A stretch of 64,000 nucleotides of DNA, taken from the NCBI GenBank assembly GCA_035291225.1, contig DATDSO010000004.1, forward strand, positions 331,130 through 395,129. Direction: 5' to 3'. Shown here piece by piece: positions 10,282 to 39,664 of this stretch. The notes under the pieces were generated by a model. That model searched no databases. It had not been told where the DNA came from and saw nothing but the letters and a program-made list of their open reading frames with translations. Made by a program: the position numbers and the translations under genes. Position 1 is the stretch's first letter. Every line of letters starts with the position of its first letter. Origin of the DNA: an archaeon (GTDB lineage: Archaea > Aenigmatarchaeota > Aenigmatarchaeia > Aenigmatarchaeales > JACQIB01).

Positions 10282-11712
10282 ATGCAAAGCAAATCTGCAA
10301 AACTTTCAGAAAAACAAACTGCCCGCGGAATGAAATACATAATGGCAGATGGTGCAAGCAATGCTGCGAAAGATTCTGTATTGACAAGCTATCTTACTCC
10401 ACTCGCGCTTGCGCTTGGAGCAAGCAATCAGCAAATCGGTTTTCTCAATAGCTTCCCTTACTTGTTCGGAAATTTAATCCAGCCTGTTGCCGGAAAATAT
10501 ATTGAAACCCGCGGCGGCAAAAAAAGCACAACTTTAGTAATGCAGTTTTTCGCGCCAATTTTAATTTTGCTGATGGCTTTTCTCCCAATTTCAGCAGTCG
10601 CTGATAAAGTTTTTTATCTTATAATCTTTACAACTTTCTATCAAATAATTTACGGCTTTCAGTCAACAGCATGGATATCTTGGATTGCAGATATTGTTCC
10701 TGAAAAAACGCGCGGGGAATTTTTTGGGAAGAGAAACACAATTGCGGGATTTGTTTCCCTCGGAGTCAGCTTTGTGGCCGGATGGCTTCTGAGTGCTACT
10801 AGAGGAAATTTTGGCTTCACAATAATTTTTGGCTTCGCTGCGCTTGCCGGAGTTGTTTCATATTTTCTTCTGAGGCAGGTTCCAAAAAGCCCTCAGGGCC
10901 CGCAAGGCAGTTTCAATTTGAGGGTAAAAGAGTTTTTCAGAGATTTTCGCTCGCATAAAAATTTCTCAAATTTCACTTACTACATTTTCTTTCTGAATTT
11001 TGGAGTTTTCATAGCTTCCCCATTTTTTGTCGTTTATATGCTGAAAGATTTGGGAATTGGATATTTTGGCTACGCAGTTTTAATTGCTGCTGAGGCGGTA
11101 GTCGCAATTTTTTCCCAGAAATATTGGGGAAAGCTGATGGACAGGTTTGGAGACAGGACAATTTTAGGAGTCTGCGGAATTTTGATTTCACTTGTTCCAA
11201 TTGCCTTTATTTTCACCGGGAATTTCTTTACACTGCTTTTCGCGCAGGCGCTCGCAGGTTTTGCGTGGGCTGGGTTTGATTTAGCAAGATTCAATTTTTT
11301 GATTGATGCAACGCCGCCGCAAAAAAGGCCGAGCTTTATTGCGAACCACAAACTTTTGGGAGGGTTTGCAATTTTTGCCGGCGGTCTTGTTGGCGGATTT
11401 TTGGCCGGAGCTTTTTCTGGGGTGGAATTTTTCTTTTTAGAAGGATTGAAAATTCTTTTCGCGCTCGCTTTTGTTTTCAGAATCCTTCCGCTGATAATTT
11501 TCCTCCCTCGCCTCCGTGAGCAGCGCGTGCCGGCTTCTCAGGCGGCTCCCGTAAAAAATATTTTCTGGCGCGCTATTGCGGTCTATCCCACACAGGGCAT
11601 TTTGCATGAGCTCATGTATATCGGGCATCTGGAGCGCGATTTTATCAAAAAGGGAAGAAAAATTTACAGGAATTTCACGGACAGATTTGGCAGGAAAAAT
11701 AAGCTTTATTAA
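10282..11712 (+). CDS. MFS-type membrane transporter
   Basis: 476 aa with about 12 hydrophobic segments in the two-half MFS layout. Confidence 0.75.
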   Translation: MQSKSAKLSEKQTARGMKYIMADGASNAAKDSVLTSYLTPLALALGASNQQIGFLNSFPYLFGNLIQPVAGKYIETRGGKKSTTLVMQFFAPILILLMAFLPISAVADKVFYLIIFTTFYQIIYGFQSTAWISWIADIVPEKTRGEFFGKRNTIAGFVSLGVSFVAGWLLSATRGNFGFTIIFGFAALAGVVSYFLLRQVPKSPQGPQGSFNLRVKEFFRDFRSHKNFSNFTYYIFFLNFGVFIASPFFVVYMLKDLGIGYFGYAVLIAAEAVVAIFSQKYWGKLMDRFGDRTILGVCGILISLVPIAFIFTGNFFTLLFAQALAGFAWAGFDLARFNFLIDATPPQKRPSFIANHKLLGGFAIFAGGLVGGFLAGAFSGVEFFFLEGLKILFALAFVFRILPLIIFLPRLREQRVPASQAAPVKNIFWRAIAVYPTQGILHELMYIGHLERDFIKKGRKIYRNFTDRFGRKNKLY

Positions 11713-11733: not shown

Positions 11734-12180
11734 ATGCAAAAAATAGCAATAGCTTTGGCGGCGATGGTTTTGATTGCAGGATGCGTCGGTAGCAGCAAAA
11801 CAACAACTACAACCGAACCTCCGGCAACATCTCCGCCCACGACATCTCCACCTACTACTACAACAGGCCCGGTAAAGACATTTGATATGCTGATAACGCA
11901 CACATCTTACGGCACGCCTGTAATCAATGTGAAGAAAGGCGATCATGTTGTTATCCGCGCGAGGGCAATCGATGGAACAGCCACGCACAAACATGGCATA
12001 ACAGTTGATGAGCTTGGTGTAAATCAGGCTGTTACAACTGAGGATAGGGACAATCCGCAGCTGGTAGAATTTGACGCAACAAAGGTTGGCGAATTCAAGA
12101 TGTATTGTGGGACATGCAAAGACGGAATCTATGGAGCAAACCACCCGAAGCTTAACGGACAAGTTGTTGTAACCGAGTAA
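11734..12180 (+). CDS. Lipoprotein with Thr/Pro-rich linker and cupredoxin-like domain
   Basis: Signal peptide plus lipobox-like AGC, TTTTTEPPATSPPTTSPPTTTT linker, then GDHVVIRARAIDGTATHKHG...GEFKMYCGTCKDGIYGANHPKLNGQVVV resembling cupredoxin folds. Confidence 0.55.
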   Translation: MQKIAIALAAMVLIAGCVGSSKTTTTTEPPATSPPTTSPPTTTTGPVKTFDMLITHTSYGTPVINVKKGDHVVIRARAIDGTATHKHGITVDELGVNQAVTTEDRDNPQLVEFDATKVGEFKMYCGTCKDGIYGANHPKLNGQVVVTE

Positions 12181-12205
12181 ATCAGTTTTTTATTTTCTTT
12201 TTATT

Positions 12206-12958
12206 TTGGCGAATCTAGTAGTAACTATGGAAATCTTTCAAAAATTAAAAACAGACATTTACTGGCTGATGATTTTTTCACTTGCAGTTTCCACAGCCGC
12301 AGCTATTTTCATTCTGAACAAGCCAGAAAATCTGGTAAATGTTCTTGCTGCGATTTTTACTGCCGCGGTTTTGGATTTGGGGATTAAAAAATATTGGAAA
12401 AAAGAAAATATGAAATTTCCAAAATCTGCAGTAATATCCGGATTTTTTGTTTCAACTGTTTTGGAGCAGGGCACTCCACTTTTAACAATAATCGTAGCCG
12501 CAGCAATTGCAATTTTATCCAAACACATTTTGCGCCTACAAGGAAAGCATATTTTCAATCCGGCAAATTTTGGAATGCTCGCTGCGATGCTGTTTCTATC
12601 AGCAACGCATGGCTGGTGGGCTTCTATCAGCCCGATTGCAATTTTGCTCGGGTTGATTGTAGTTTGGAGATTTGAAAGGTTTCATCAGGTTATTCCGTTT
12701 TTGATAACTTACTATTTGGCGAATTTCGCTTTCAACCAAACTTTACCAACGCCTGATTTCACTTTGCTTTTCTTTTCATTTTTCATGTTCATTGAGCCGA
12801 AAACTTCTCCCTCCAATAGAAACGCGAGAATTGCTTACGGCGCGCTTGCCGGAATAATCGTTTTCGCAGCAACAGTTTTCTTCCCCACTTATTCAATTTT
12901 CGCCGGGCTTGCGATTGCAAATATTTTTGGGTTTTTAATAAACAGATTTGTGAAGTGA
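12206..12958 (+). CDS. RnfD/NqrB-family-like polytopic membrane protein (truncated, 250 aa)
   Basis: LQGKHIFNPANFGMLAAMLF matches the GRNFLNPALAGRAF block of NqrB/RnfD; downstream SAT could correspond to the FMN-attachment Thr; multiple TM helices. Confidence 0.5.
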   Translation: MANLVVTMEIFQKLKTDIYWLMIFSLAVSTAAAIFILNKPENLVNVLAAIFTAAVLDLGIKKYWKKENMKFPKSAVISGFFVSTVLEQGTPLLTIIVAAAIAILSKHILRLQGKHIFNPANFGMLAAMLFLSATHGWWASISPIAILLGLIVVWRFERFHQVIPFLITYYLANFAFNQTLPTPDFTLLFFSFFMFIEPKTSPSNRNARIAYGALAGIIVFAATVFFPTYSIFAGLAIANIFGFLINRFVK

Positions 12959-12962
12959 GAAT

Positions 12963-13253
12963 ATGGCAAAACTTGTGAGAGATAAAGTTCCGGAAATAAT
13001 GAAGCTGGAAGGAAAAAATCCTGCAACTCACATTGCAGATGATGAAGAATACTGGAAGCGGCTGAAAGAAAAATTAAGGCTGGAGGCCGCAGAATTCACC
13101 GCGAACGAAAAAATCGAAGAACTTGCTAGCGTTCTTGAAGTTATCCGCGCGATTTGCGATTTCAGAAAAATTGATTTGAAAGATATTGAAGCTTTGCTGG
13201 AAAAGAAAGCAAAAGAGCGCGGGGGATTTGTAAAGAGGATCATTATCGAGTAA
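12963..13253 (+). CDS. MazG-like nucleoside triphosphate pyrophosphohydrolase (small all-alpha NTP-PPase)
   Basis: KLVRDKVPEIM...EELASVLEVIRAICDF...KKAKERGGFVKRIIIE typical of short MazG/HisE-like NTP pyrophosphatases. Confidence 0.7.
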   Translation: MAKLVRDKVPEIMKLEGKNPATHIADDEEYWKRLKEKLRLEAAEFTANEKIEELASVLEVIRAICDFRKIDLKDIEALLEKKAKERGGFVKRIIIE

Positions 13254-13327: not shown

Positions 13328-15118
13328 ATGCCACAAAGACGCCATACCGTAATGAAAACTCCATTTACAACAGAATACCGTGGAACATGGGGATACCGCA
13401 GAATGGTTCTTGATTCTGTTTCCAACCACCTTCCTGCGGACAGTCTTGGGACAGAAACTAAAGTTTTGTTGAGACAGGACGGTCATTACGTTGATTTAAA
13501 GTCAGCAGATCCAGCAAAGCCAACAGAAGAAGTTGTTTTCAGGGACAATGGCCCCGGCTATCCCAGAGAGTTTTTGGTTTGGATGCACTCTACAAAAACA
13601 GATGACCCAAAAACTGTTGGCCAGTTTGGGGAAGGTTTGAAGCTTGCGGCACTTGCTGCTTTGAGATCTGAAGTATCTCTTGAATATAGGTCTAGAGATT
13701 CTGAAGGAAACTGGACAGCTGTCCCATTCAAAGAGCCAGCATCTGCTGGTAGCAGAAAAGTTGAATTGCTTTGTTATGAAATAAAAGATGATGAGGGTTT
13801 TACAGGTTCTCAAACTGTTTTTAAAAATCCCAATCCCGAACTGCTCAAGGAAGTTTTCGGGATTCCAGAAAATGTTTTATTCTTCAATAATATTTATAGA
13901 GAGCTCTACAGCGAAAAGGATAATTTGCCATATAGCAAAGAGAAGGTAGTTATAGAGGGCGGGCCGAGGCCAAAGAGGTATTTATCCAGAATAATTGACA
14001 CCGGAAAGGGTTCCAGCCTCTTTGTGAAAGGAATAAAGCTAAGGGATGTGATTCCTTCAATTTTCAGCTATGATCTCGGCACGCAAGATATTGCGCCGGA
14101 CAGAAATCTGGCTGATATGGAAATCGTTGTGGATGAAATAGAACATATATTGAAGGGCTGCTCCAATCCGGAAATTGTAAAGAAAGTTTTAATGACTGCT
14201 AACGAAAGACCTAATGAAAGCCTTCTCGAATTCTCTGCTTTCAGCAACATAAGGAAAGTGGACGAAGAAATTAGGCGTCGGAAATATGGTTTTACTGAAC
14301 AAGAGCAAGATGCAATCGGAGGAAATAAAAAGGCGAAAAAAATCCCAAAAAATCTGTGGGCCAAAACCTTCAGAGATATTTGGGGAGAGAAAGCTGTTAT
14401 AGCTTCAGGAAATGTAAACAAAAATAAAGAAGCCGAATTAATGGGCTACAATCCTGTTTTGTTAGACGGGTATATAGGAAGATATCTTGCTGATAAAGGT
14501 ATAATGACAGCAGATGGGCTAGTCAAAGGAACTGGTTATAAGTGGATTGATGAAAGCGAGCTAACAGGTGAAGAGAAAGAAATGATTTCCAGAGCTGAAG
14601 AGATAAACAGAACTCTATCACATAATCGAATACTTACTTTTGATTTTCCAATTAGAGTTTATTCTCACGCGCTTTTGCCTGATGGCGAAGAAGCTCAGGA
14701 AACAGAGGGTGTTTTCGATAAGCAAGGTCGATTTATCGGAATACGGCGCGACCAGCTTGTTAACTTTAGAACATTTGCAGAAGTCTATGTACATGAGTTA
14801 GGCCATGGTGTTACAAATAAAGGTGATTACGATAGAGAATTTACAGATTATTTTGTGAAAGCAGCTGCCGCACTTATTTCAAGCTCACTTTCTAGAGAGA
14901 CTCCCGAACCAGAAACAACCGAAGTGATAGAAGTAGTTGAAGAGGTCACTCTGGTTGAGCCGGAAATTGTTGAACATGTTGAAGCCGCAATGCCAGAACC
15001 ACTTATAATGGCTAAGAGAAGAGCTGAAGGGCAAGTTCCAGTTGAAGTTCCTCTAACGCCAGAGCATGAAAACGGAATTGATAAAACAATAAAAGAAATA
15101 TTTGAAAGATACCTATAA
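13328..15118 (+). CDS. GHKL (Bergerat-fold) ATPase fused to a C-terminal HExxH zincin-like domain; function unknown
   Basis: N-box-like DSVSNHLPAD, G1 box DNGPGY, G2 box GQFGEGLK in the N-terminal 120 aa; VYVHELGHGV (HExxH) near residue 495; acidic C-terminal tail. Confidence 0.6.
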   Translation: MPQRRHTVMKTPFTTEYRGTWGYRRMVLDSVSNHLPADSLGTETKVLLRQDGHYVDLKSADPAKPTEEVVFRDNGPGYPREFLVWMHSTKTDDPKTVGQFGEGLKLAALAALRSEVSLEYRSRDSEGNWTAVPFKEPASAGSRKVELLCYEIKDDEGFTGSQTVFKNPNPELLKEVFGIPENVLFFNNIYRELYSEKDNLPYSKEKVVIEGGPRPKRYLSRIIDTGKGSSLFVKGIKLRDVIPSIFSYDLGTQDIAPDRNLADMEIVVDEIEHILKGCSNPEIVKKVLMTANERPNESLLEFSAFSNIRKVDEEIRRRKYGFTEQEQDAIGGNKKAKKIPKNLWAKTFRDIWGEKAVIASGNVNKNKEAELMGYNPVLLDGYIGRYLADKGIMTADGLVKGTGYKWIDESELTGEEKEMISRAEEINRTLSHNRILTFDFPIRVYSHALLPDGEEAQETEGVFDKQGRFIGIRRDQLVNFRTFAEVYVHELGHGVTNKGDYDREFTDYFVKAAAALISSSLSRETPEPETTEVIEVVEEVTLVEPEIVEHVEAAMPEPLIMAKRRAEGQVPVEVPLTPEHENGIDKTIKEIFERYL

Positions 15119-15605: not shown

Positions 15606-16634
15606 TCACTTTTTTCTTCTTACAAGCCTGCCGCCATCAGTTTTTGGCTGAGGGGCTTGCGCCGGAACAGAAACTTTTGGCCTTTTCATGATAAAGAAAG
15701 CAGTAGCACCCAAAACAACAAGAACAGCCGCGCCACCTATCAGTGTTGTTGGAGAGCTAAGCAAATCTCCGATAGAGGAAGTTGTTGCTGTTGTATCTTT
15801 TATCGCGTCATTCGCCTGAAGAGCAAGATTTTTCGCAGCAGCATAATCTTGGGAGTTGTAGGATTTTACAGCTTCCACATAGAGCTTGAGCGCACTGCTG
15901 ACATCTTTTTTTCCGGAATTTTCATTTATTGTATTGTTAACATTTTCTATTGCTGCGAGCGCCTCCTCGGGCGTTATAGTGGTTGAAGTTGCCGTGGTTT
16001 CTTGGGAAGAAGCAGCTGTGGTTGTGGTACCCTGTTGATTAATAATTATTTCAGAGGCAGAAGTTGATCCAGTTGAGCCAGCGGAAGTTGCCGCAGTTGG
16101 TGAAGTTGTTGTGGTAGCTGCAGCAGATGTGGACGTGGTGTTGGGGGCTGTAGTTGTCGTTGGAGCGGCTGTAGTAGTTGGGGCTGCAGTTGTCGTTGGC
16201 GGTGTAGTTGTAGTAGTTGGCGGAGTTGTGGTGGTAGTGGTAGGCGGAGTAAACGAGCCAGTCGCACTACCGCCAAAGCACATCACAACTTGAGCTACAT
16301 CCTCGACATTACCACTCCACGAAAATGTTTTTCCTTCATTTCCAGCAGTAGGCGTGTAAACATAGCTCAGAACAGTATCTAAATTTTGTGTGTATGCTTT
16401 CGGAAATCTATGAATATCATTCGTTATTGCCGGAGTGCAAGAAGCGCAGTTTATATTGAAATTATAGAAACTAGGAGTTTGGTCAGCTCCATTCCAATTT
16501 GCTGTAAATTCGAGCCTATAGTCGCCATTTTCTAACAAGGTTGTTGTAGGAAGTGTACAGGTTGTCATCGCAAAAGCTCCCTGAGCTAAGAAAATGAAAA
16601 TTAAAACTCCTATAAGTCCGAATTTCTTATTCAT
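15606..16634 (-). CDS. Cell-surface protein: signal peptide, Cys-containing globular domain, Thr/Pro-rich linker, C-terminal TM anchor
   Basis: N-terminal signal peptide, long TPPTTTTT/APTTT repeats (likely O-glycosylation linker), C-terminal hydrophobic helix followed by basic tail RLVRRKK. Confidence 0.7.
   Translation of the reverse strand: MNKKFGLIGVLIFIFLAQGAFAMTTCTLPTTTLLENGDYRLEFTANWNGADQTPSFYNFNINCASCTPAITNDIHRFPKAYTQNLDTVLSYVYTPTAGNEGKTFSWSGNVEDVAQVVMCFGGSATGSFTPPTTTTTTPPTTTTTPPTTTAAPTTTAAPTTTTAPNTTSTSAAATTTTSPTAATSAGSTGSTSASEIIINQQGTTTTAASSQETTATSTTITPEEALAAIENVNNTINENSGKKDVSSALKLYVEAVKSYNSQDYAAAKNLALQANDAIKDTTATTSSIGDLLSSPTTLIGGAAVLVVLGATAFFIMKRPKVSVPAQAPQPKTDGGRLVRRKK
16046..16280 (-). 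repeat. Low-complexity Thr/Pro codon repeat inside the surface-protein gene
   Basis: Reiterated ggtgtagttgt/ggcggagttgt-type units on plus strand encoding poly-Thr/Pro-Thr on minus strand. Confidence 0.6.
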
Positions 16635-18485: not shown

Positions 18486-19238
18486 ATGAGCCAAAGAATA
18501 ATCCGCAGCGAGTTTCGTTCAAGATTTCCCGGCTACATTGGAGAGAGAGACTTCTACGCGGAAAACCTTAGTATGTATAGAGAAACTGAACTTTTGTGGT
18601 TGCTACATAATTATGTGAAAATAAATAGAGATGGCTCTGCTGAGCGTGTTCAAACAGAGCAGGAATATGAAAAAATAAAGCAAAGAATGTTGAGAAGATA
18701 TAGAAGACATTCAGATCCTCATCTGTTATTTGATATTGAGAGAGGGGTTCATTTAAGCCCCGATTACAAACTATTGCCCTCGACGTATTCTGTCTCTATC
18801 GGAGGGATCTTCTATAGGAAGCAGTATACAAAAGAAATATTTTGCAAAAGAGTTTCAAGAACAAAAGAATTTAGAGTTAAGCAAAAAGACTATAGGGATG
18901 GAGGATTTAATGTAACATGCGAGGCAGAAGATGGAACATTTTTGACGTTTTTTAGAAATTGCAGCGATTACCCGACCAGTTTTTATGCTGGACACTTTGA
19001 CCCATCTTCGACATTACAGCAAGAAATAGTGGAAGGTATTCCTCGAGTCATCGATGCTTTCGATAGATTCTCTCCGAGGATGCTTGATAGTGAAGTTGTT
19101 AAAGCATCAATAGAACTCGCCTTGGAAAATGATAAATCAGAACCAAATTATGAAATTTCTGGAAAGTTAAAACCTGTGGAGGAATTTGTAGCCGCCATAG
19201 GAAGCACATTAGTCTTTGGTCCTTCTAAAACCTTTTAA
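18486..19238 (+). CDS. Hypothetical protein (250 aa)
   Basis: Intact ORF between the KH-protein gene and abcE1; no recognisable motif. Confidence 0.4.
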   Translation: MSQRIIRSEFRSRFPGYIGERDFYAENLSMYRETELLWLLHNYVKINRDGSAERVQTEQEYEKIKQRMLRRYRRHSDPHLLFDIERGVHLSPDYKLLPSTYSVSIGGIFYRKQYTKEIFCKRVSRTKEFRVKQKDYRDGGFNVTCEAEDGTFLTFFRNCSDYPTSFYAGHFDPSSTLQQEIVEGIPRVIDAFDRFSPRMLDSEVVKASIELALENDKSEPNYEISGKLKPVEEFVAAIGSTLVFGPSKTF

Positions 19239-34738: not shown

Positions 34739-36063
34739 AAACAGTTTTCCTTTGCGGTGGAATTGGCAAGCGCATGCATCCGATTGCAGAAGAAAAATTT
34801 CTGCTGAAGTTCGCTGGAAAAACTTTGCTGGAGCGCCATATTGATGCTGCGCGCTCAGCAGGCTTGAAAGATTTTGTGATTATTGGAAACCCGCATAATA
34901 TTGAAAAAATAAAGGATTTGTGTTCAAGACAAAATGGAGCAAATTTTGAATTTGCTGTGCAGAAAGAGCCAAAAGGAATGGCGGACGCAATGCTTTCCGC
35001 CAGCCACATTTTTGACGGAGAAGATTTCATTGTTGTTAACACAAATGATATTTTTGAGCCAAGCGCTTACAAAAATATTTTGGACGCTGCGAAAAATTCC
35101 GAGCACGATTCTCTGCTTACTGGATATGAAGTGCAAAAATATTTTCCCGGCGGTTATTTCCGCACAAACGAAAATGGAGAAATGATAGAGCTTGTTGAAA
35201 AGCCGGGCGCGGAAAATATGCCGAGCAATCTTCTGAATATTGTTTTGCACTTGCACAGAAACACAAAAAAGCACTTCAAGCATTGGGCGGAAACAAAATC
35301 TGAAAAGGATGATATTTATGAGCGGGCTCTGACTGAAATGGTGAAGAGCGGCGGAAAAATAAAAGTTGTTCCCTATTCAGGATTCTGGACTGCAATAAAA
35401 TATCCATGGCACATTCATGACGCGGCAGAATTTTTCATGAAAAATCAAGAGAGAAAAATTTCTCCTAATGCGAAAATTTCCGAGCGCGCGGTTGTTGATG
35501 GAAATGTTGTGATTGAAGATGGTGTTAGAATTTTTGAGAACGCTGTTGTGCGCGGACCGGCTTACATCGGAAAAAATACAATCATTGGAAACAACGCGCT
35601 CGTTTGGTCAGGCTCGCATATTGGAGACAACTCCGTTGTGGGATTCTCAACTGAGATAAAGCATTCATACATAGGAGACAACTGCTGGTTTCATTCAAAT
35701 TATGTTGGAGATTCAATTATACTGGACAACACAACTTTCGGAGCAGGAACAATAACAGCAAACCTGCGTTTTGACAATGGAAATGTAAAAGTCAATGTAA
35801 GAGGAGAAAGAGTTGACACAGGCACAGAAAAATTCGGCGCGATTTTCGGAGAGAACTGCAAAACAGGAATCAATTGCGTTATACTTCCGGGAATAAAAAT
35901 CGGGCCGAATAGTTTTGTCGGGCCGCATGTGCATTTGGACGAAGACCTAGAGCCAGACAAAATGATTTTCCTGAAGCAAAGCCATGTAGTAAAAGAAAAC
36001 ACAATAAAGCCCGGGAAAAGCTATGAGGAGTTCAGAAAAAAACTTCCGGATGTTGGGAAGTGA
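34735..36063 (+). CDS. Bifunctional sugar-1-phosphate nucleotidyltransferase / hexapeptide-repeat acetyltransferase (archaeal GlmU-like)
   Basis: N-terminal nucleotidyltransferase fold (LCGGIGKRM) and C-terminal left-handed beta-helix hexapeptide repeats. Confidence 0.8.
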   Translation: MKTVFLCGGIGKRMHPIAEEKFLLKFAGKTLLERHIDAARSAGLKDFVIIGNPHNIEKIKDLCSRQNGANFEFAVQKEPKGMADAMLSASHIFDGEDFIVVNTNDIFEPSAYKNILDAAKNSEHDSLLTGYEVQKYFPGGYFRTNENGEMIELVEKPGAENMPSNLLNIVLHLHRNTKKHFKHWAETKSEKDDIYERALTEMVKSGGKIKVVPYSGFWTAIKYPWHIHDAAEFFMKNQERKISPNAKISERAVVDGNVVIEDGVRIFENAVVRGPAYIGKNTIIGNNALVWSGSHIGDNSVVGFSTEIKHSYIGDNCWFHSNYVGDSIILDNTTFGAGTITANLRFDNGNVKVNVRGERVDTGTEKFGAIFGENCKTGINCVILPGIKIGPNSFVGPHVHLDEDLEPDKMIFLKQSHVVKENTIKPGKSYEEFRKKLPDVGK

Positions 36064-36067
36064 TTCT

Positions 36068-37252
36068 ATGCGCCTCTACGAATTTGAAAGCAAGCAAATG
36101 CTGAAAAAAAATGGAATAAAAATTCCGCAGTCAGTTCTTTCCACTTCTGCGATTTCTGAAATCCCGTTCAACAGCGAAATTGCTGTGAAAGCCCAAGTGC
36201 TTTCTAATGGAAGGGGAAAAGCTGGCGGAGTGAAAGTTTTTTCCAGCCCAGAGGAAGCGAAAAATTTTGCGAACTCTTTGCTCGGCTCGGTTTTGCTGAA
36301 AGAAAAAGTGAAGTCTGTTTTGATTGAAAAGAAAATTAAAACAAAAAACGAATTCTACATAAGCTTTGCTTATGACACTGACACGCAGCTGCCGGTTTTG
36401 GTTTTGAGCAAATCCGGCGGAGTGGATGTCGCCGAGCTAACAAAAAACAGCTGGCTTGCGAAAATTCCCATTGACCCTTTGCTTGGGCTGAAAGAGTGGC
36501 AGGCGAGAGATGCTGCTGTTGACGCAGGATTCGCAAGCGAGCTGATTCCAAAAATTTCTGATTTTGCCTTGAGGCTTTACAATGTTTTCTCATCAGAGGA
36601 CTGCAGGCTTTTGGAAATAAATCCGCTGAGCCTGACAGAAGAAGGAGAGCTTGTTGCAGTCGGCGCGCTTATAGATTTGGACAACGATGCGGGCTATAAG
36701 CACAAGGAAAGAAATTATCCGCCGCGCATGCCCGGAGTTGGACGCGAACTTACAGACGGAGAAATGCTTGTGAAAAAATCTGACGAGGCAGATTACCGCG
36801 GCTCAATAAAATTTATTGAGCTCGGCGGAGAAATTGGATTTCTCGCAGCAGGTGGGGGCGGGAGCATGGCTGCGATGGACGCTTTAATTATTGCCGGAGG
36901 AAATCCCGCGAACTATGCGGAATTTTCCGGAGACCCGCCGAAAGAAAAAGTCTACGCGCTCGCGAAAGCAATTCTCTCGCAGAAAAATTTGGCCGGCTTG
37001 TGGATTGTCGGGGCAATTGCAAATTTCACGCGCATGGACCAGACAATGCAGGGAGTTGTTGAAGCCCTGAGAGAAGCAAAGCCAAAATATCCGATTGTTG
37101 TTCGGCGCTCGGGCCCGTATGAAAAAGAAGGATTGCAAATGCTGAAAGATGTTGGGGTCGAGCTCGGGCTTGACATTGAAGTGCACGGCTCTGAAGTTTC
37201 AATGACAGCGACTGCGAAGACAATTGCGGAGAAAGTTAAAAAACAAAAATGA
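36068..37252 (+). CDS. Succinyl-CoA synthetase beta-like ATP-grasp subunit (possible citryl-CoA synthetase / ACL beta)
   Basis: ATP-grasp N-terminus (QVLSNGRGKAGGVKV) and CoA-ligase C-terminus (GFLAAGGGGSMAAMD...GGNPANYAEF); start set at first Met after upstream stop. Confidence 0.75.
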   Translation: MRLYEFESKQMLKKNGIKIPQSVLSTSAISEIPFNSEIAVKAQVLSNGRGKAGGVKVFSSPEEAKNFANSLLGSVLLKEKVKSVLIEKKIKTKNEFYISFAYDTDTQLPVLVLSKSGGVDVAELTKNSWLAKIPIDPLLGLKEWQARDAAVDAGFASELIPKISDFALRLYNVFSSEDCRLLEINPLSLTEEGELVAVGALIDLDNDAGYKHKERNYPPRMPGVGRELTDGEMLVKKSDEADYRGSIKFIELGGEIGFLAAGGGGSMAAMDALIIAGGNPANYAEFSGDPPKEKVYALAKAILSQKNLAGLWIVGAIANFTRMDQTMQGVVEALREAKPKYPIVVRRSGPYEKEGLQMLKDVGVELGLDIEVHGSEVSMTATAKTIAEKVKKQK

Positions 37253-38163
37253 TTTTTATGAGCATTCTAATAAACAAAGAAACAAAAGTTTTAATTCAGG
37301 GAATTACTGGACGCAGCGGGCAGGTTGCGCTCCACACAATGAAAGAATACGGGACAAAAGTTTTGGCAGGTGTGACTCCGGGGAAGGGTGGGCAGGAAGT
37401 TGAAGGGGTTCCGGTTTTCAATTCAGTTCACGAGGCTTTGAAAAAATTTCCGGAAATAAATTGCTCAGCAATTTATGTTCCGCCCGCAGCTTGCCGCGAG
37501 GCAGTGATTGAGGCGGTTTCAAATGGAATTAAATTGGTGAATGTAATTACAGAAGGAGTTGCGATTCAGGACACGGTTCAAATGCTGCGCTACGCAAAAC
37601 TTTATGGAGCGCGAATTGTCGGGCCATCTTCAATTGGAATTTTAACTCCGAAGCAATGCAAGATTGGAGTTCTCGGCGGCTCTGCTGTGGACACTGACAA
37701 AATTTATTTTCCCGGAAGCATTGGAGTGATTTCGAAAAGCGGAGGCATGACAAATGAAACTGCATGGGTTGTGCGTTCAGCTGGATTGGGCCAGTCAACT
37801 GTTGTTGGAATTGGCGGGGATGTGATTTTGGGAACTGATTTTGTGGATTTGCTGAAAATGTTTGAGGCAGACAAGGAAACAAAAGGGGTTGTAATTTTCG
37901 GAGAGCCTGGCGGGACTTATGAGGACAAGATTGCCGAGGCTGTCAGGAAAAAAGAATTCACAAAACCGATTGCTGCTTTTATTGCAGGAGTTTTCGCCGA
38001 GAGGCTTCCGCACGGAACGCAGTTCGGCCACGCGGGCGCGCTGATTGAAAATGGAAGGGGCTCGCCTGTGCAGAAAATTAAAATTTTGAAAGAGGCTGGG
38101 GTTTTAATTGCGGAAACGCATGATATGTTGGGGGAGGTTATAAAAAGAGCTATTGAAAATTAA
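37249..38163 (+). CDS. Succinyl-CoA synthetase alpha-like CoA-binding subunit
   Basis: KVLIQGITGRSGQ CoA-binding start and phosphohistidine loop GTQFGHAGA. Confidence 0.8.
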   Translation: MIFMSILINKETKVLIQGITGRSGQVALHTMKEYGTKVLAGVTPGKGGQEVEGVPVFNSVHEALKKFPEINCSAIYVPPAACREAVIEAVSNGIKLVNVITEGVAIQDTVQMLRYAKLYGARIVGPSSIGILTPKQCKIGVLGGSAVDTDKIYFPGSIGVISKSGGMTNETAWVVRSAGLGQSTVVGIGGDVILGTDFVDLLKMFEADKETKGVVIFGEPGGTYEDKIAEAVRKKEFTKPIAAFIAGVFAERLPHGTQFGHAGALIENGRGSPVQKIKILKEAGVLIAETHDMLGEVIKRAIEN

Positions 38164-38169
38164 TTAAAG

Positions 38170-38268
38170 GGCTCGCAGGTTTTCGTAAACTCAAACCCGC
38201 TCGCGACTAATGTGGAATAAAAATATTTTCACACATTAGTTAGCGAGGCTCATGGGTTTACCCTGAGC
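38170..38268. other. Structured intergenic region: GC-rich repeat copy 2 plus two stem-loops
   Basis: ggctcgcaggttttcgtaaactcaaacccgctcgc (38170-38204); inverted repeats actaatgtg/cacattagt (38207-38240) and gctcatggg/accctgagc (38248-38268). Confidence 0.5.
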
Positions 38269-38296
38269 CGAGCAAATCAAAATAAGTTGTGATAAC

Positions 38297-39025
38297 ATGA
38301 AATGGAAAACAAAAATTTCAGATGCGAACGATGAAGGCACAAAGATTAGAGGAAAAGCTCTTGAAGAGCTTGTGGGAAAAATTTCCTATGCTGAAATGGT
38401 TTTTCTTTTGCTGCGCGGAAAAATGCCAACGCCTGAAGAAAGCAAAATGATGGAAGCGCTTTTGGTTTGCGTGGCAGAGCACAGCATTGCTGTTCCTTCT
38501 ATAACTGCTGCGCGCATAGCAGCGAGCGGCTCGGGAAGTTTTGTGCAGGGAGTTGCCGCAGGAATTTTGGGAATAGGCGAGCACCACGGAGGCGCAGGCG
38601 AGGGCTGCGCAAAAGTTCTGCAGGAAAATTTGGGAAAGCCTGCTGCTGAAGTTGTCGCAAAATTTTCCGCGAGAAAAGAAAGGCTGCCGGGCTTTGGGCA
38701 CAAAATTTATACAACAGACCCGCGCACGAAAAAACTTTTTTCAATTGCAAAAGAGCTTGGGATTTTTGGGAGCTACTGCAATTTTGCGCTTGAGCTCGAA
38801 AAAGAATTGGAGCGCGCGGGTGGAAAAAAACTCTGCCTTAATGTTGACGGCGCGATTGCCGCAATAATTTCTGAAATGGGATTCCACTGGAAAAGCGGCC
38901 GCGCGTTTTTTGTGATTCCGCGCACAGCAGGAATTTCCGCGCATGTTATTGAGGAACTGATGGAGGAGAAGCCGTTTTCAAAAAGATTGGAAGAGGGGGA
39001 ATATGAATATTTGGGGGAGAAATAA
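38297..39025 (+). CDS. Citrate synthase-fold small protein (citryl-CoA lyase-like)
   Basis: GEHHGGAGEG (cf. GPLHGGANE) and PGFGHKIYTTDPR (citrate synthase signature); 242 aa, like short stand-alone citryl-CoA lyases. Confidence 0.65.
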   Translation: MKWKTKISDANDEGTKIRGKALEELVGKISYAEMVFLLLRGKMPTPEESKMMEALLVCVAEHSIAVPSITAARIAASGSGSFVQGVAAGILGIGEHHGGAGEGCAKVLQENLGKPAAEVVAKFSARKERLPGFGHKIYTTDPRTKKLFSIAKELGIFGSYCNFALELEKELERAGGKKLCLNVDGAIAAIISEMGFHWKSGRAFFVIPRTAGISAHVIEELMEEKPFSKRLEEGEYEYLGEK

Positions 39026-39028
39026 TTT

Positions 39029-39664
39029 CTATTCAATATTTTCTTCAATTATTCTTCTGATAGCTTTCTTAACAAGCTCTTGATTTTGCGGTGGAACACG
39101 CAGCGCATTTTCTAAAGCATCTCTAAGATAAGACGGGGGCTCTGTTATAATAGGCTGTGTTCCAGATAAACTATAAGGTTCCTGAGAGGCAACTCCGCCA
39201 ACAATCACACCTTCAGGCACTCCAGAATATGCTGCATCTCTTAGAACTCTCGGCAGGTGATCCGGATTGCTCACAAAAAATACTGCCTGTTTATCTTTGC
39301 CTCCGCGAAGGGCTGCAGCAGTGCTTTCTTCTGTAGTAGTTCCGCGGGTTTCAAAATTTATAGTGTAATTTTCCAACCCAGGAAACGCTTCTCTCGCATA
39401 TTCGTAGAAAGCTGCAGTTTCCAAAACCCCCTCATGCTTTAAGCCCCCTGCAATAGTTATGTCAACTTCAAAACCGCGGCCGCTTAAAAATTCTGCCAAC
39501 TCCAAAGCAGTTCTGGTTCTATCGTAGACAACATCTTCCCAAGGCCTGAAGCCTTCTGGAACCGGCTTGGCATAGCCGCACAAAACTATTCTAACACCAC
39601 GTTTCATATTTACTATATTGGGGTAACTAATATATAAATGCCTCTCCAACCAAATGCCCTCCAT
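39029..39664 (-). CDS. Hypothetical protein, possibly DUF218 (YdcF/ElyC)-like
   Basis: Weak resemblance (VRIVLCGYA, TINFETRGTTTEES) to DUF218; start probably at internal Met. Confidence 0.4.
   Translation of the reverse strand: MEGIWLERHLYISYPNIVNMKRGVRIVLCGYAKPVPEGFRPWEDVVYDRTRTALELAEFLSGRGFEVDITIAGGLKHEGVLETAAFYEYAREAFPGLENYTINFETRGTTTEESTAAALRGGKDKQAVFFVSNPDHLPRVLRDAAYSGVPEGVIVGGVASQEPYSLSGTQPIITEPPSYLRDALENALRVPPQNQELVKKAIRRIIEENIE

Follow-up and report, generated by a model that had tools for sequence, protein, structure and literature searches.

This report concerns two adjacent genes in a stretch of 64,000 nucleotides from an archaeon of the Aenigmatarchaeota (GenBank assembly GCA_035291225.1, contig DATDSO010000004.1, positions 331,130 to 395,129 of the forward strand; the whole stretch is called the window below). 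The upstream gene encodes a cupredoxin-like lipoprotein and the downstream gene a 250-aa membrane protein, here termed mini-RnfD. By profile and by fold, mini-RnfD is a real homologue of RnfD and NqrB, the subunits that carry electrons between the outer membrane face and the cytoplasmic side in the Rnf and Nqr complexes. It is a core-only, 10-helix relative of these proteins and cannot be flavinylated. The explanation we favour, with somewhat better than even prospects, is that the two proteins form a minimal module which moves electrons across the membrane independently of flavinylation. Behind it stand results shown here: the homology and fold of mini-RnfD, the missing flavin site, a pair that is conserved and closely spaced, and fusions that occur in nature.

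A preliminary description of the window had taken the 250-aa protein for an NqrB/RnfD homologue, and this has been borne out. The protein matches the Pfam family NQR2_RnfD_RnfE (PF03116) with 55.8 bits (cutoff 27.7, E 6e-15), and its best NCBIfam matches are RnfD models, at scores far under the equivalog cutoffs. A family profile built from 57 relatives finds solved chains of RnfD (E 1e-15) and NqrB (8e-8). The AlphaFold2 (AF2) model has a pLDDT of 95.8 and about 10 long helices; in Foldseek it is closest to 9eri_D, the RnfD of A. woodii (TMq, the query-based TM-score, 0.81), and to 7zc6_D (0.80), followed by NqrB. The block GKHIFNPANFG, likened early on to the NPA region of RnfD, does align with ...NiVNPALAA... 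of the solved RnfD chains.

Mini-RnfD shares with canonical RnfD/NqrB (7zc6_D, 9eri_D, 7xk3_B) the two inverted five-helix repeats (TM-scores 0.7-0.8), an NPA-type motif before helix V and a (D/E)PxTxP motif after helix VIII, where EPKTSP is the counterpart of the RnfD TDxxTSP. It differs in being ~60-170 residues shorter, with a linker of ~12 residues, and in having no [S/T]GA[S/T] site (D at -4/-5) for covalent attachment of flavin mononucleotide (FMN) to Thr. The protein stops four residues past helix X and has no PF00175 hit. Its shortness and the lack of other Rnf/Nqr subunits nearby had been remarked on already, and both observations hold: no gene for RnfA/E/G/B/C or NqrA/C/D/E/F is present in the Pfam-annotated part of the window (~2.2-64 kb) or in 55 related loci, and the same part of the window has no ApbE or FMN_bind gene.

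A word-indexed search yielded 237 relatives of mini-RnfD, nearly all of 230-300 aa, and by exhaustive HMMER search the family has 517 cluster representatives (50% identity, E <= 1e-30) whose median length is ~258 aa. With one representative genome per species there are 52 mini-RnfD loci, nearly all in bins of DPANN archaea (Woesearchaeota, Aenigmarchaeota, Micrarchaeota and Nanoarchaeia); a single bin labelled Acidiferrales and several that are mislabelled 'Methanosarcinales' fall outside this pattern. Invariant or near-invariant in the alignment are D57, FPxSAxISG, AILSKH, HIFNPA, W137-W138 and MxIEPKTxP (Table 1). From the published description of the RnfD structure, W137-W138 are predicted to lie where helix V ends on the extracellular side, next to what used to be the FMN pocket.

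The loss of the flavin site is apparent from the alignment. The family profile aligns to RnfD chains in two pieces (e.g. 7zc6_D 22-144 and 183-302), and the segment that is skipped is the RnfD 'five-helix linker' (7zc6_D ~140-190), of which ~12 residues remain in mini-RnfD. In RnfD of C. tetanomorphum this linker covers the FMN pocket and bears Thr153, to which FMN is esterified (PMC9588780). The flavinylation motif D..[ST].A[ST] is found in 0 of 113 mini-RnfD members checked, and a second check of members found it in just two fusions, in the FMN_bind domain and never in the membrane core. The triplet SAT had been put forward as a possible site of flavin attachment. This proposal has to be given up, since relatives have AG, TS, AA, VS or GQ at the position and the linker with the FMN-Thr is deleted. 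A search for ApbE elsewhere in the genome is probably moot, because there is no ApbE gene in the annotated window. Cysteines are absent from the window protein and rare in the family (median 0, maximum 2 in 113 members). Presumably mini-RnfD uses a non-covalently bound flavin, or the metal site of its partner docks in the vacated FMN pocket.

The upstream gene product was initially described as a lipoprotein in which a Thr/Pro linker precedes or joins a cupredoxin-like domain, and the AF2 model and the Foldseek matches bear out the cupredoxin fold. The 148-aa protein has a signal peptide and a lipobox, LIAGC, at residues 13-17; Cys17 (nt 11782-11784) is at least 90% conserved in 52 relatives, and the protein is predicted to be an exported lipoprotein. 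The Thr/Pro linker spans residues ~20-45 and the cupredoxin domain residues 46-148 (nt 11869-12177). AF2 models the domain as an eight-stranded sandwich, with block-mean pLDDT of 88-98 over residues 51-148. Foldseek gives a probability of 1.0 to CuA domains (best ba3 oxidase and NosZ), to nitrosocyanin and to the B. anthracis Cupredoxin_1 protein 4hci; the CupA Cu(I) chaperone is also among the matches. On the model, a cupredoxin fold can be assigned with confidence.

Against Pfam Cupredoxin_1 (PF13473) the window protein scores 20.7 (threshold 27, E 4e-4), a 46%-identical relative scores 27.9, and most members of the subfamily carry a precomputed PF13473 hit. Models of the NosZ CuA domain and of nitrosocyanin in profile libraries match as well. 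Nitrosocyanin (1iby_A) is the closest solved sequence relative (E 1.9e-7), and C125 and H87 correspond to its ligands Cys95 and Glu60, respectively. A profile search delimits a distinct DPANN subfamily of ~88 proteins with 94-182 bits, below which scores drop to ~65 bits, where ordinary CuA and type-1 cupredoxins start. A very narrow family, as seen with a domain-only word-indexed search (10 close relatives), was rejected when a profile that included divergent locus neighbours gave the ~88.

In 52 members of the subfamily H56, Y59, H85, H87, G88, D92, G119, C125, C128, G131, H137 and P138 are invariant. The ligand loop is C-x2-C-x8-H-P, with Leu or Ile (L140 in the window) at the position of the CuA Met, and the window type of cupredoxin matches neither the type-1 copper ligand set (His...Cys-x(2-4)-His-x(2-4)-Met) nor the CuA set (His...C-x3-C-x3-H-x2-M). 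With the CuA domains of cytochrome oxidase subunit II and the NosZ C-terminus, and with nitrosocyanin, it shares the fold and the presence of H87, C125 and H137 at ligand positions; with CuA it also shares two Cys in the C-terminal ligand loop. It departs from CuA in its loop, C-x2-C-x8-H as against C-x3-C-x3-H-x2-M, with Leu/Ile for the axial Met, and from both CuA and nitrosocyanin in having two more invariant His, H56 and H85. The canonical CuA motif does occur in a fusion protein and in two related loci described below.

The preliminary description let its proposal depend on the two genes being conserved together, and they are, in distant relatives. On the mini-RnfD side, open reading frames (ORFs) were clustered in 55 genome loci. 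A cupredoxin gene is found no more than four genes from mini-RnfD in 10 of them, and is directly adjacent in eight of these 10. Seven of the cupredoxins are of the window type, and three, in Micrarchaeota, are canonical type-1 proteins with the ligand pattern H...C-x4-H-x4-M, which is typical of dedicated electron carriers. The survey from the cupredoxin side covered 35 metagenome loci and two genome contexts; mini-RnfD is directly adjacent in 15 of the ~27 loci with enough flank. Adjacent pairs are co-oriented in 20 of 21 cases; the gap lies between -14 and +53 nt in 19, and the two genes share 4 nt in five. In a rough distance tree the mini-RnfDs linked to a cupredoxin are spread over at least four deep DPANN branches, down to 32-40% identity, and the paired members include an Aenigmatarchaeote. 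With pairs spread this deeply, genes that overlap and one natural protein in which the two are fused, a mere coincidence of gene order is unlikely.

In one locus of the Aenigmatarchaeota (L058:6001-12462) the pair is followed by a small helix-turn-helix regulator and a complete SufCBDS/U Fe-S assembly operon. The same regulator adjoins a cupredoxin and a ZIP transporter in locus L087. The gene upstream of the L058 pair (DUF5667) seems, by eye, to have a putative ligand-less cupredoxin-type domain at its C-terminus.

The evidence that tells most comes from natural fusions, which are rare among the top members of the family. In P0260 and P0379, from Elusimicrobiota and Patescibacteria, mini-RnfD is joined to FAD_binding_6 and NAD_binding_1 domains; P0260 is 36% identical to the window core. 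In P0309 and P0315 mini-RnfD is fused to an FMN_bind domain that is exported and carries the flavinylation motif DxxTxAT. The metagenome protein P0313 consists of mini-RnfD, an extra transmembrane helix, a Thr/Ser linker and a cupredoxin whose CuA motif, CSVQCGHGHATM, is of textbook form. The P0313 core shares 34% identity with the window protein, and P0260 and P0313 are as near to the latter as are most DPANN members. The FNR-type and FMN_bind fusions therefore group the mini-RnfD family with the bacterial two-subunit NQR/RNF-like systems. These fusions, along with the published systems, also give substance to the early idea of a minimal extracytoplasmic electron-transfer unit. Two other fusions are P0306 and P0363: one has a Cys-rich DUF2769 domain, and the other, from Omnitrophota, an extra transmembrane helix and an exported beta-rich domain of ~100 aa.

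Small redox proteins other than cupredoxins also neighbour mini-RnfD. A ferredoxin, Rieske or cupredoxin gene is found within four genes in 39 of the 55 loci; Fer4_15 ferredoxins are near mini-RnfD in 28 loci and Rieske ferredoxins in five. The commonest gene order, that of one large Woesearchaeal clade, is EamA transporter, Fer4_15 ferredoxin, zinc-ribbon protein, mini-RnfD, and convergent DHFR and ThyA genes. The zinc-ribbon protein (cluster c3) has 66 aa and a basic tail, and its gene is located between the Fer4_15 ferredoxin and mini-RnfD genes in 22 loci of Woesearchaeota (L007-L034 etc.). A glutaredoxin gene is near the pair in six of 23 paired loci, in five of which it is co-oriented and 5' of the cupredoxin gene, and a gene similar to thioredoxin reductase (TrxR) is near it in three. 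One FNR-like gene and, in Aenigmarchaeota, divergent GGR-like flavoproteins complete the neighbours.

A Met/Cys/His-rich insertion (CGMMNMRCPMQP, CGMMNMRCPM or MMGRMPMMxNMPMMM) is found in the loop between helices VII and VIII in 34 of 214 mini-RnfD members; examples are genes of L029, L057, L020, L026, L031 and L033, and P0035, P0065, P0115 and P0063. By homology with RnfD, in which helix VIII contacts the flavin, the loop is predicted to be on the outer face, next to that helix. The insertion resembles a Met motif that binds Cu(I), and it would sit next to where the FMN pocket used to be. In the surveyed loci it is present only where there is no cupredoxin neighbour (9 of 37, vs 0 of 19 with one).

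If the pair is an electron-transfer module, electrons from a cytoplasmic carrier would cross the mini-RnfD core to the tethered cupredoxin outside. In relatives the carrier, encoded nearby or fused, may be a ferredoxin, a Rieske protein, a glutaredoxin with thioredoxin reductase, or an FNR-type domain. The cupredoxin ligand loop would dock where the deleted linker once capped the FMN pocket; in the published model of NQR/RNF-like systems, the flavin of the partner samples the FMN pocket (Meheust et al., 2021, PMC8238504; Huang et al., 2024, PMC11334425). A likely end-point is the reduction of extracellular metal (Cu/Fe) or the maintenance of an exported Cys/Cu site in its reduced state. The direction in which electrons flow, the cofactor of mini-RnfD, the metal bound by the cupredoxin and the physiological acceptor are inferred. 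A more specific version, which we regard as a tentative and rather doubtful one, is that a copper centre replaces the covalent FMN at the outer mouth, in a two-protein, flavinylation-free module widespread in DPANN; the copper would be provided by the tethered 2-Cys/4-His cupredoxin or by the Met/Cys-rich loop.

Several findings weigh against an electron-transfer role. Channels and transporters have the RnfD fold too, and urea and Amt transporters match the model weakly in Foldseek. Mini-RnfD has no Cys and no flavinylation, haem or Fe-S motif, so no cofactor can be assigned, and since the cupredoxin has neither the type-1 nor the CuA ligand set, that it carries electrons is an assumption. An adjacent mini-RnfD is absent in ~12 of the 27 cupredoxin loci, and the P0313 fusion represents a single sequence cluster from two contigs. 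The synteny with ferredoxin and zinc-ribbon genes may be inherited gene order, because it is confined to a single large clade. No gene for a cytoplasmic donor is present in the window: tblastn with representatives of ferredoxin, Rieske, TrxR, glutaredoxin and FNR-like proteins, and also of zinc-ribbon, GGR-like and c26 proteins, found none in the 64 kb. Lastly, the Met-rich extracellular loops of some members suit copper binding or transport as well as redox chemistry.

This last point leads to copper or other metal handling, with mini-RnfD as a channel or transporter and the cupredoxin as a copper chaperone, in the manner of CopC/CopD, CupA/CopA or the Met motifs of Ctr1. The CupA match, the resemblance of the RnfD fold to urea and ammonium channels, and the MFS transporter in the operon of the window all speak for it, as do a ZIP transporter, a CopA-type ATPase and a CopY/BlaI-type regulator near some of the cupredoxin genes. 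In the cupredoxin model CxxC begins a short predicted helix with four invariant His near, a geometry found also in metal chaperones. The Met/Cys/His-rich insertion is a further argument, although it fits a copper redox relay equally well. However, the fusions with FNR-type NAD(P)H/FAD and flavinylated FMN_bind domains make sense only for electron transfer, the type-1 partners in Micrarchaeota are electron carriers and not chaperones, the ferredoxin and Rieske neighbours are left unexplained, and there are no Pfam hits to the CopD or Ctr families. Metal handling as the function of the pair is thus considered unlikely. It should be pointed out that a metalloreductase would reconcile the metal and electron readings, and such a function is counted here with electron transfer.

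Another view is that mini-RnfD only keeps the two Cys of the cupredoxin reduced for metal insertion or repair, as a functional equivalent of CcdA/DsbD with thioredoxin-like proteins in CuA assembly, and that the real redox partner is elsewhere. In locus L059 a window-type cupredoxin is followed by a DsbD_TM protein in place of mini-RnfD, CuA-type DPANN cupredoxins share clusters with a DsbD_TM or thioredoxin-fold protein, several loci have glutaredoxin and TrxR genes 5' of the pair in the same orientation, and in L081 an exported multi-thioredoxin-domain protein is encoded 5' of the cupredoxin. DsbD_TM is, moreover, a known transmembrane reductant conduit, and its place after the L059 cupredoxin is counted for electron transfer as well. 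The likeness to DsbD/CcdA (as in CuA maturation and Scs systems) consists of a polytopic membrane protein encoded beside an exported Cys-containing cupredoxin, with glutaredoxin or TrxR nearby in several loci; mini-RnfD differs in its fold and has no conserved transmembrane Cys pair. A DsbD-type thiol-disulfide relay through the Cys-less mini-RnfD is impossible and was rejected, the single-Cys type-1 partners of Micrarchaeota require no disulfide reduction, and the FNR and FMN_bind fusions indicate a general delivery of electrons. The prospects of a role limited to maturation or maintenance are therefore slight. Equally poor are those of no functional coupling at all, where mini-RnfD would be an ion or solute channel or a structural protein, and adjacency an inherited gene order in compact genomes. 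Mini-RnfD indeed has no cofactor motif, 45 of the 55 mini-RnfD loci have no nearby cupredoxin gene, the type of partner mostly tracks the clade, and a separate promoter may be present in the spacer of the window. Against this stand pairing on at least four deep branches, pairs that overlap, the existence of P0313 and the small redox protein genes close by in 39 of 55 loci.

Among the known systems closest to the electron-transfer module proposed here are the NQR/RNF-like systems. These have an NqrB/RnfD-like membrane domain without the flavinylated Thr, fused to PF00175, and a flavinylated partner similar to NqrC/RnfG; a unidirectional flow of electrons from NAD(P)H to an acceptor outside the cytosol is proposed, and some clusters include a VIT1 iron transporter. 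They are known from 127 clusters, mainly in Actinobacteria and the candidate phyla radiation, and cupredoxin partners are not mentioned (PMC8238504; PMC11334425). The membrane family is the same, P0260 and P0379 scoring 236 and 176 bits with the mini-RnfD profile. Also common to both are a core without the flavinylated Thr, a single exported redox partner and the lack of RnfA/E/B/C and NqrA/D/E/F. The window protein differs in having no fused PF00175/FAD domain, such fusions being limited to a few bacterial members. There is no FMN_bind (PF04205) or ApbE (PF02424) gene within five genes or in the annotated window, the partner is a cupredoxin where those systems have an NqrC/RnfG-like flavoprotein, and the host is a DPANN archaeon. 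Of the three operational marks of these systems (Meheust et al., 2021), the window has one, a PF03116 domain without the flavinylated Thr. Because the membrane family and the two-component logic are shared, the window system is classed with the NQR/RNF-like systems as an archaeal, stand-alone, flavinylation-independent and copper-partnered variant.

The fused relatives of mini-RnfD, which join an FNR-type NAD(P)H/FAD module to an outward-delivering membrane domain, recall the NOX/FRE/STEAP metalloreductases. The membrane domain of mini-RnfD is unrelated to that of these enzymes and has no haem-binding His pairs, and the window protein has no fused reductase.

In the literature on RnfD in DPANN, cupredoxins in DPANN and Rnf in Woesearchaeota, nothing was found on the pair. 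There are reports of complete bacterial-type rnfCDGEAB operons in a few Woesearchaeota and of CuA-type 'nosZ-like' DPANN proteins (PMC10936187). The latter were considered as mini-RnfD partners, and this is not so in the two contexts checked (L097:4175-8008 and L099:4069-7792, from metagenome-assembled genomes, MAGs, of Woesearchaeota / Nanoarchaeia). Both contain VIT1, a CuA-type cupredoxin (CSVFCGSGHSGM) with the canonical motif, a 283-aa exported protein that is not a mini-RnfD, a second CuA cupredoxin, and a DsbD_TM or thioredoxin-fold protein. Their cupredoxins are probably the 'nosZ-like' proteins, and their surroundings suggest copper redox proteins that are exported and for which DsbD acts as the conduit, rather than N2O reduction. 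In L059 (5087-7541) a 305-aa protein 5' of the cupredoxin resembles the 283-aa protein, by eye, in its N-terminal motif.

The MFS transporter, cupredoxin, mini-RnfD and 96-aa protein genes form four closely packed ORFs in one orientation (Table 1). Linkage of the MFS gene to the pair is limited to the close clade of the window (L001-L004, L060). Genes for ribosomal protein L15e, RNase P Rpp14/Rpp30, RLI and SMC/ScpAB flank the locus, a gene content of DPANN type, and metagenome contigs from JGI (samples 3300002502 and 3300002105) carry genes identical to those of the window; the organism turns up on dozens of public contigs. Among the ORFs of at least 50 aa in the whole window there is no second copy of mini-RnfD or the cupredoxin; a 250-aa ORF at 18486-19235, considered as a paralogue, was rejected as it has no Pfam hit and no hit to the hidden Markov models.

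The TTG start of mini-RnfD adds seven residues that are not conserved. Close homologues begin at the equivalent of Met8 (ATG 12227), and this ATG is preceded by a T-rich spacer with a TATA-like element ~25 nt upstream; the true product is thus probably of 243 aa. The spacer suggests a possible internal archaeal promoter and a leaderless start of mini-RnfD. A similar element, TTTATTAA, is found ~25 nt 5' of the cupredoxin ATG (11734), and both elements may, to judge from their sequence and position, give leaderless transcripts.

Table 1. Coordinates of the gene pair, its sequence features and its neighbours in the window
Feature	Position (nt)	Strand	Remarks
MFS transporter gene	10282-11712	+	21 nt 5' of the cupredoxin gene, same orientation
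Cupredoxin-like lipoprotein gene, 148 aa	11734-12180	+	from the ORF list
Candidate metal/redox residues H56, Y59, H85, H87, D92, C125-x2-C128, H137-P138	11899-12147	+	
T-rich spacer TTTTTTATTTTCTTTTTATT	12181-12226	+	cupredoxin stop codon to probable mini-RnfD ATG
Mini-RnfD gene, 250 aa	12206-12958	+	TTG start; probably 243 aa from ATG 12227
HIFNPA motif, residues 115-120	12548-12565	+	N118, P119, A120 invariant; common to RnfD/NqrB
SAT, residues 131-133	12596-12604	+	inside the 12-residue linker remnant
W137-W138	12614-12619	+	W137 invariant, W138 at least 90% conserved
EPKTSP motif, residues 197-202	12794-12811	+	E197 invariant; P198, T200, P202 at least 90% conserved
96-aa protein gene	12963-13253	+	unrelated to the pair

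Three other features of the window can be mentioned. At 36023-39100 (+) are three adjacent genes with ATP-grasp_2/Citrate_bind, CoA_binding/Ligase_CoA and Citrate_synt domains; the domains point to an ATP-citrate-lyase-like or citryl-CoA synthetase/lyase set, which would be unusual for a reduced DPANN genome. A 596-aa protein encoded at 13328-15118 (+) has only weak HATPase_c-like hits, at its N-terminus, no family assignment and a zinc-protease-like HELGH motif near residue 480, and is found only in the closest relatives. The 342-aa secreted protein encoded at 15606-16634 (-) combines a long low-complexity region, rich in Thr, Pro and Ala, with a membrane anchor and basic tail at its C-terminus, and is likely to be a glycosylated surface protein.

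To our knowledge, DPANN archaea have tiny genomes and, a few exceptions aside, no recognised respiratory chain, and are generally held to lack membrane electron transport. The pair is a concrete target for the study of redox balance and metal handling at the DPANN cell surface. It belongs to a large family (517 clusters at 50% identity) whose partners are nearly always small redox proteins, and the family is tied to the bacterial NQR/RNF-like systems, with copper proteins in place of flavinylated ones. The findings also correct routine labels such as 'RnfABCDGE complex subunit D', 'nitrous oxide reductase', 'plastocyanin' and 'cytochrome c oxidase subunit 2', which could mislead MAG surveys toward Rnf complexes, denitrification or aerobic respiration. 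The H-x-H ... C-x2-C-x8-H-P site of the cupredoxin may be a new kind of metal centre, and the protein, being small and soluble, should be easy to express and characterise. If copper does replace FMN, there would be a new class of cupredoxin metal sites, and the pair would be the first defined extracytoplasmic electron route in DPANN, e.g. for cupric or ferric reduction or for redox exchange with a host.

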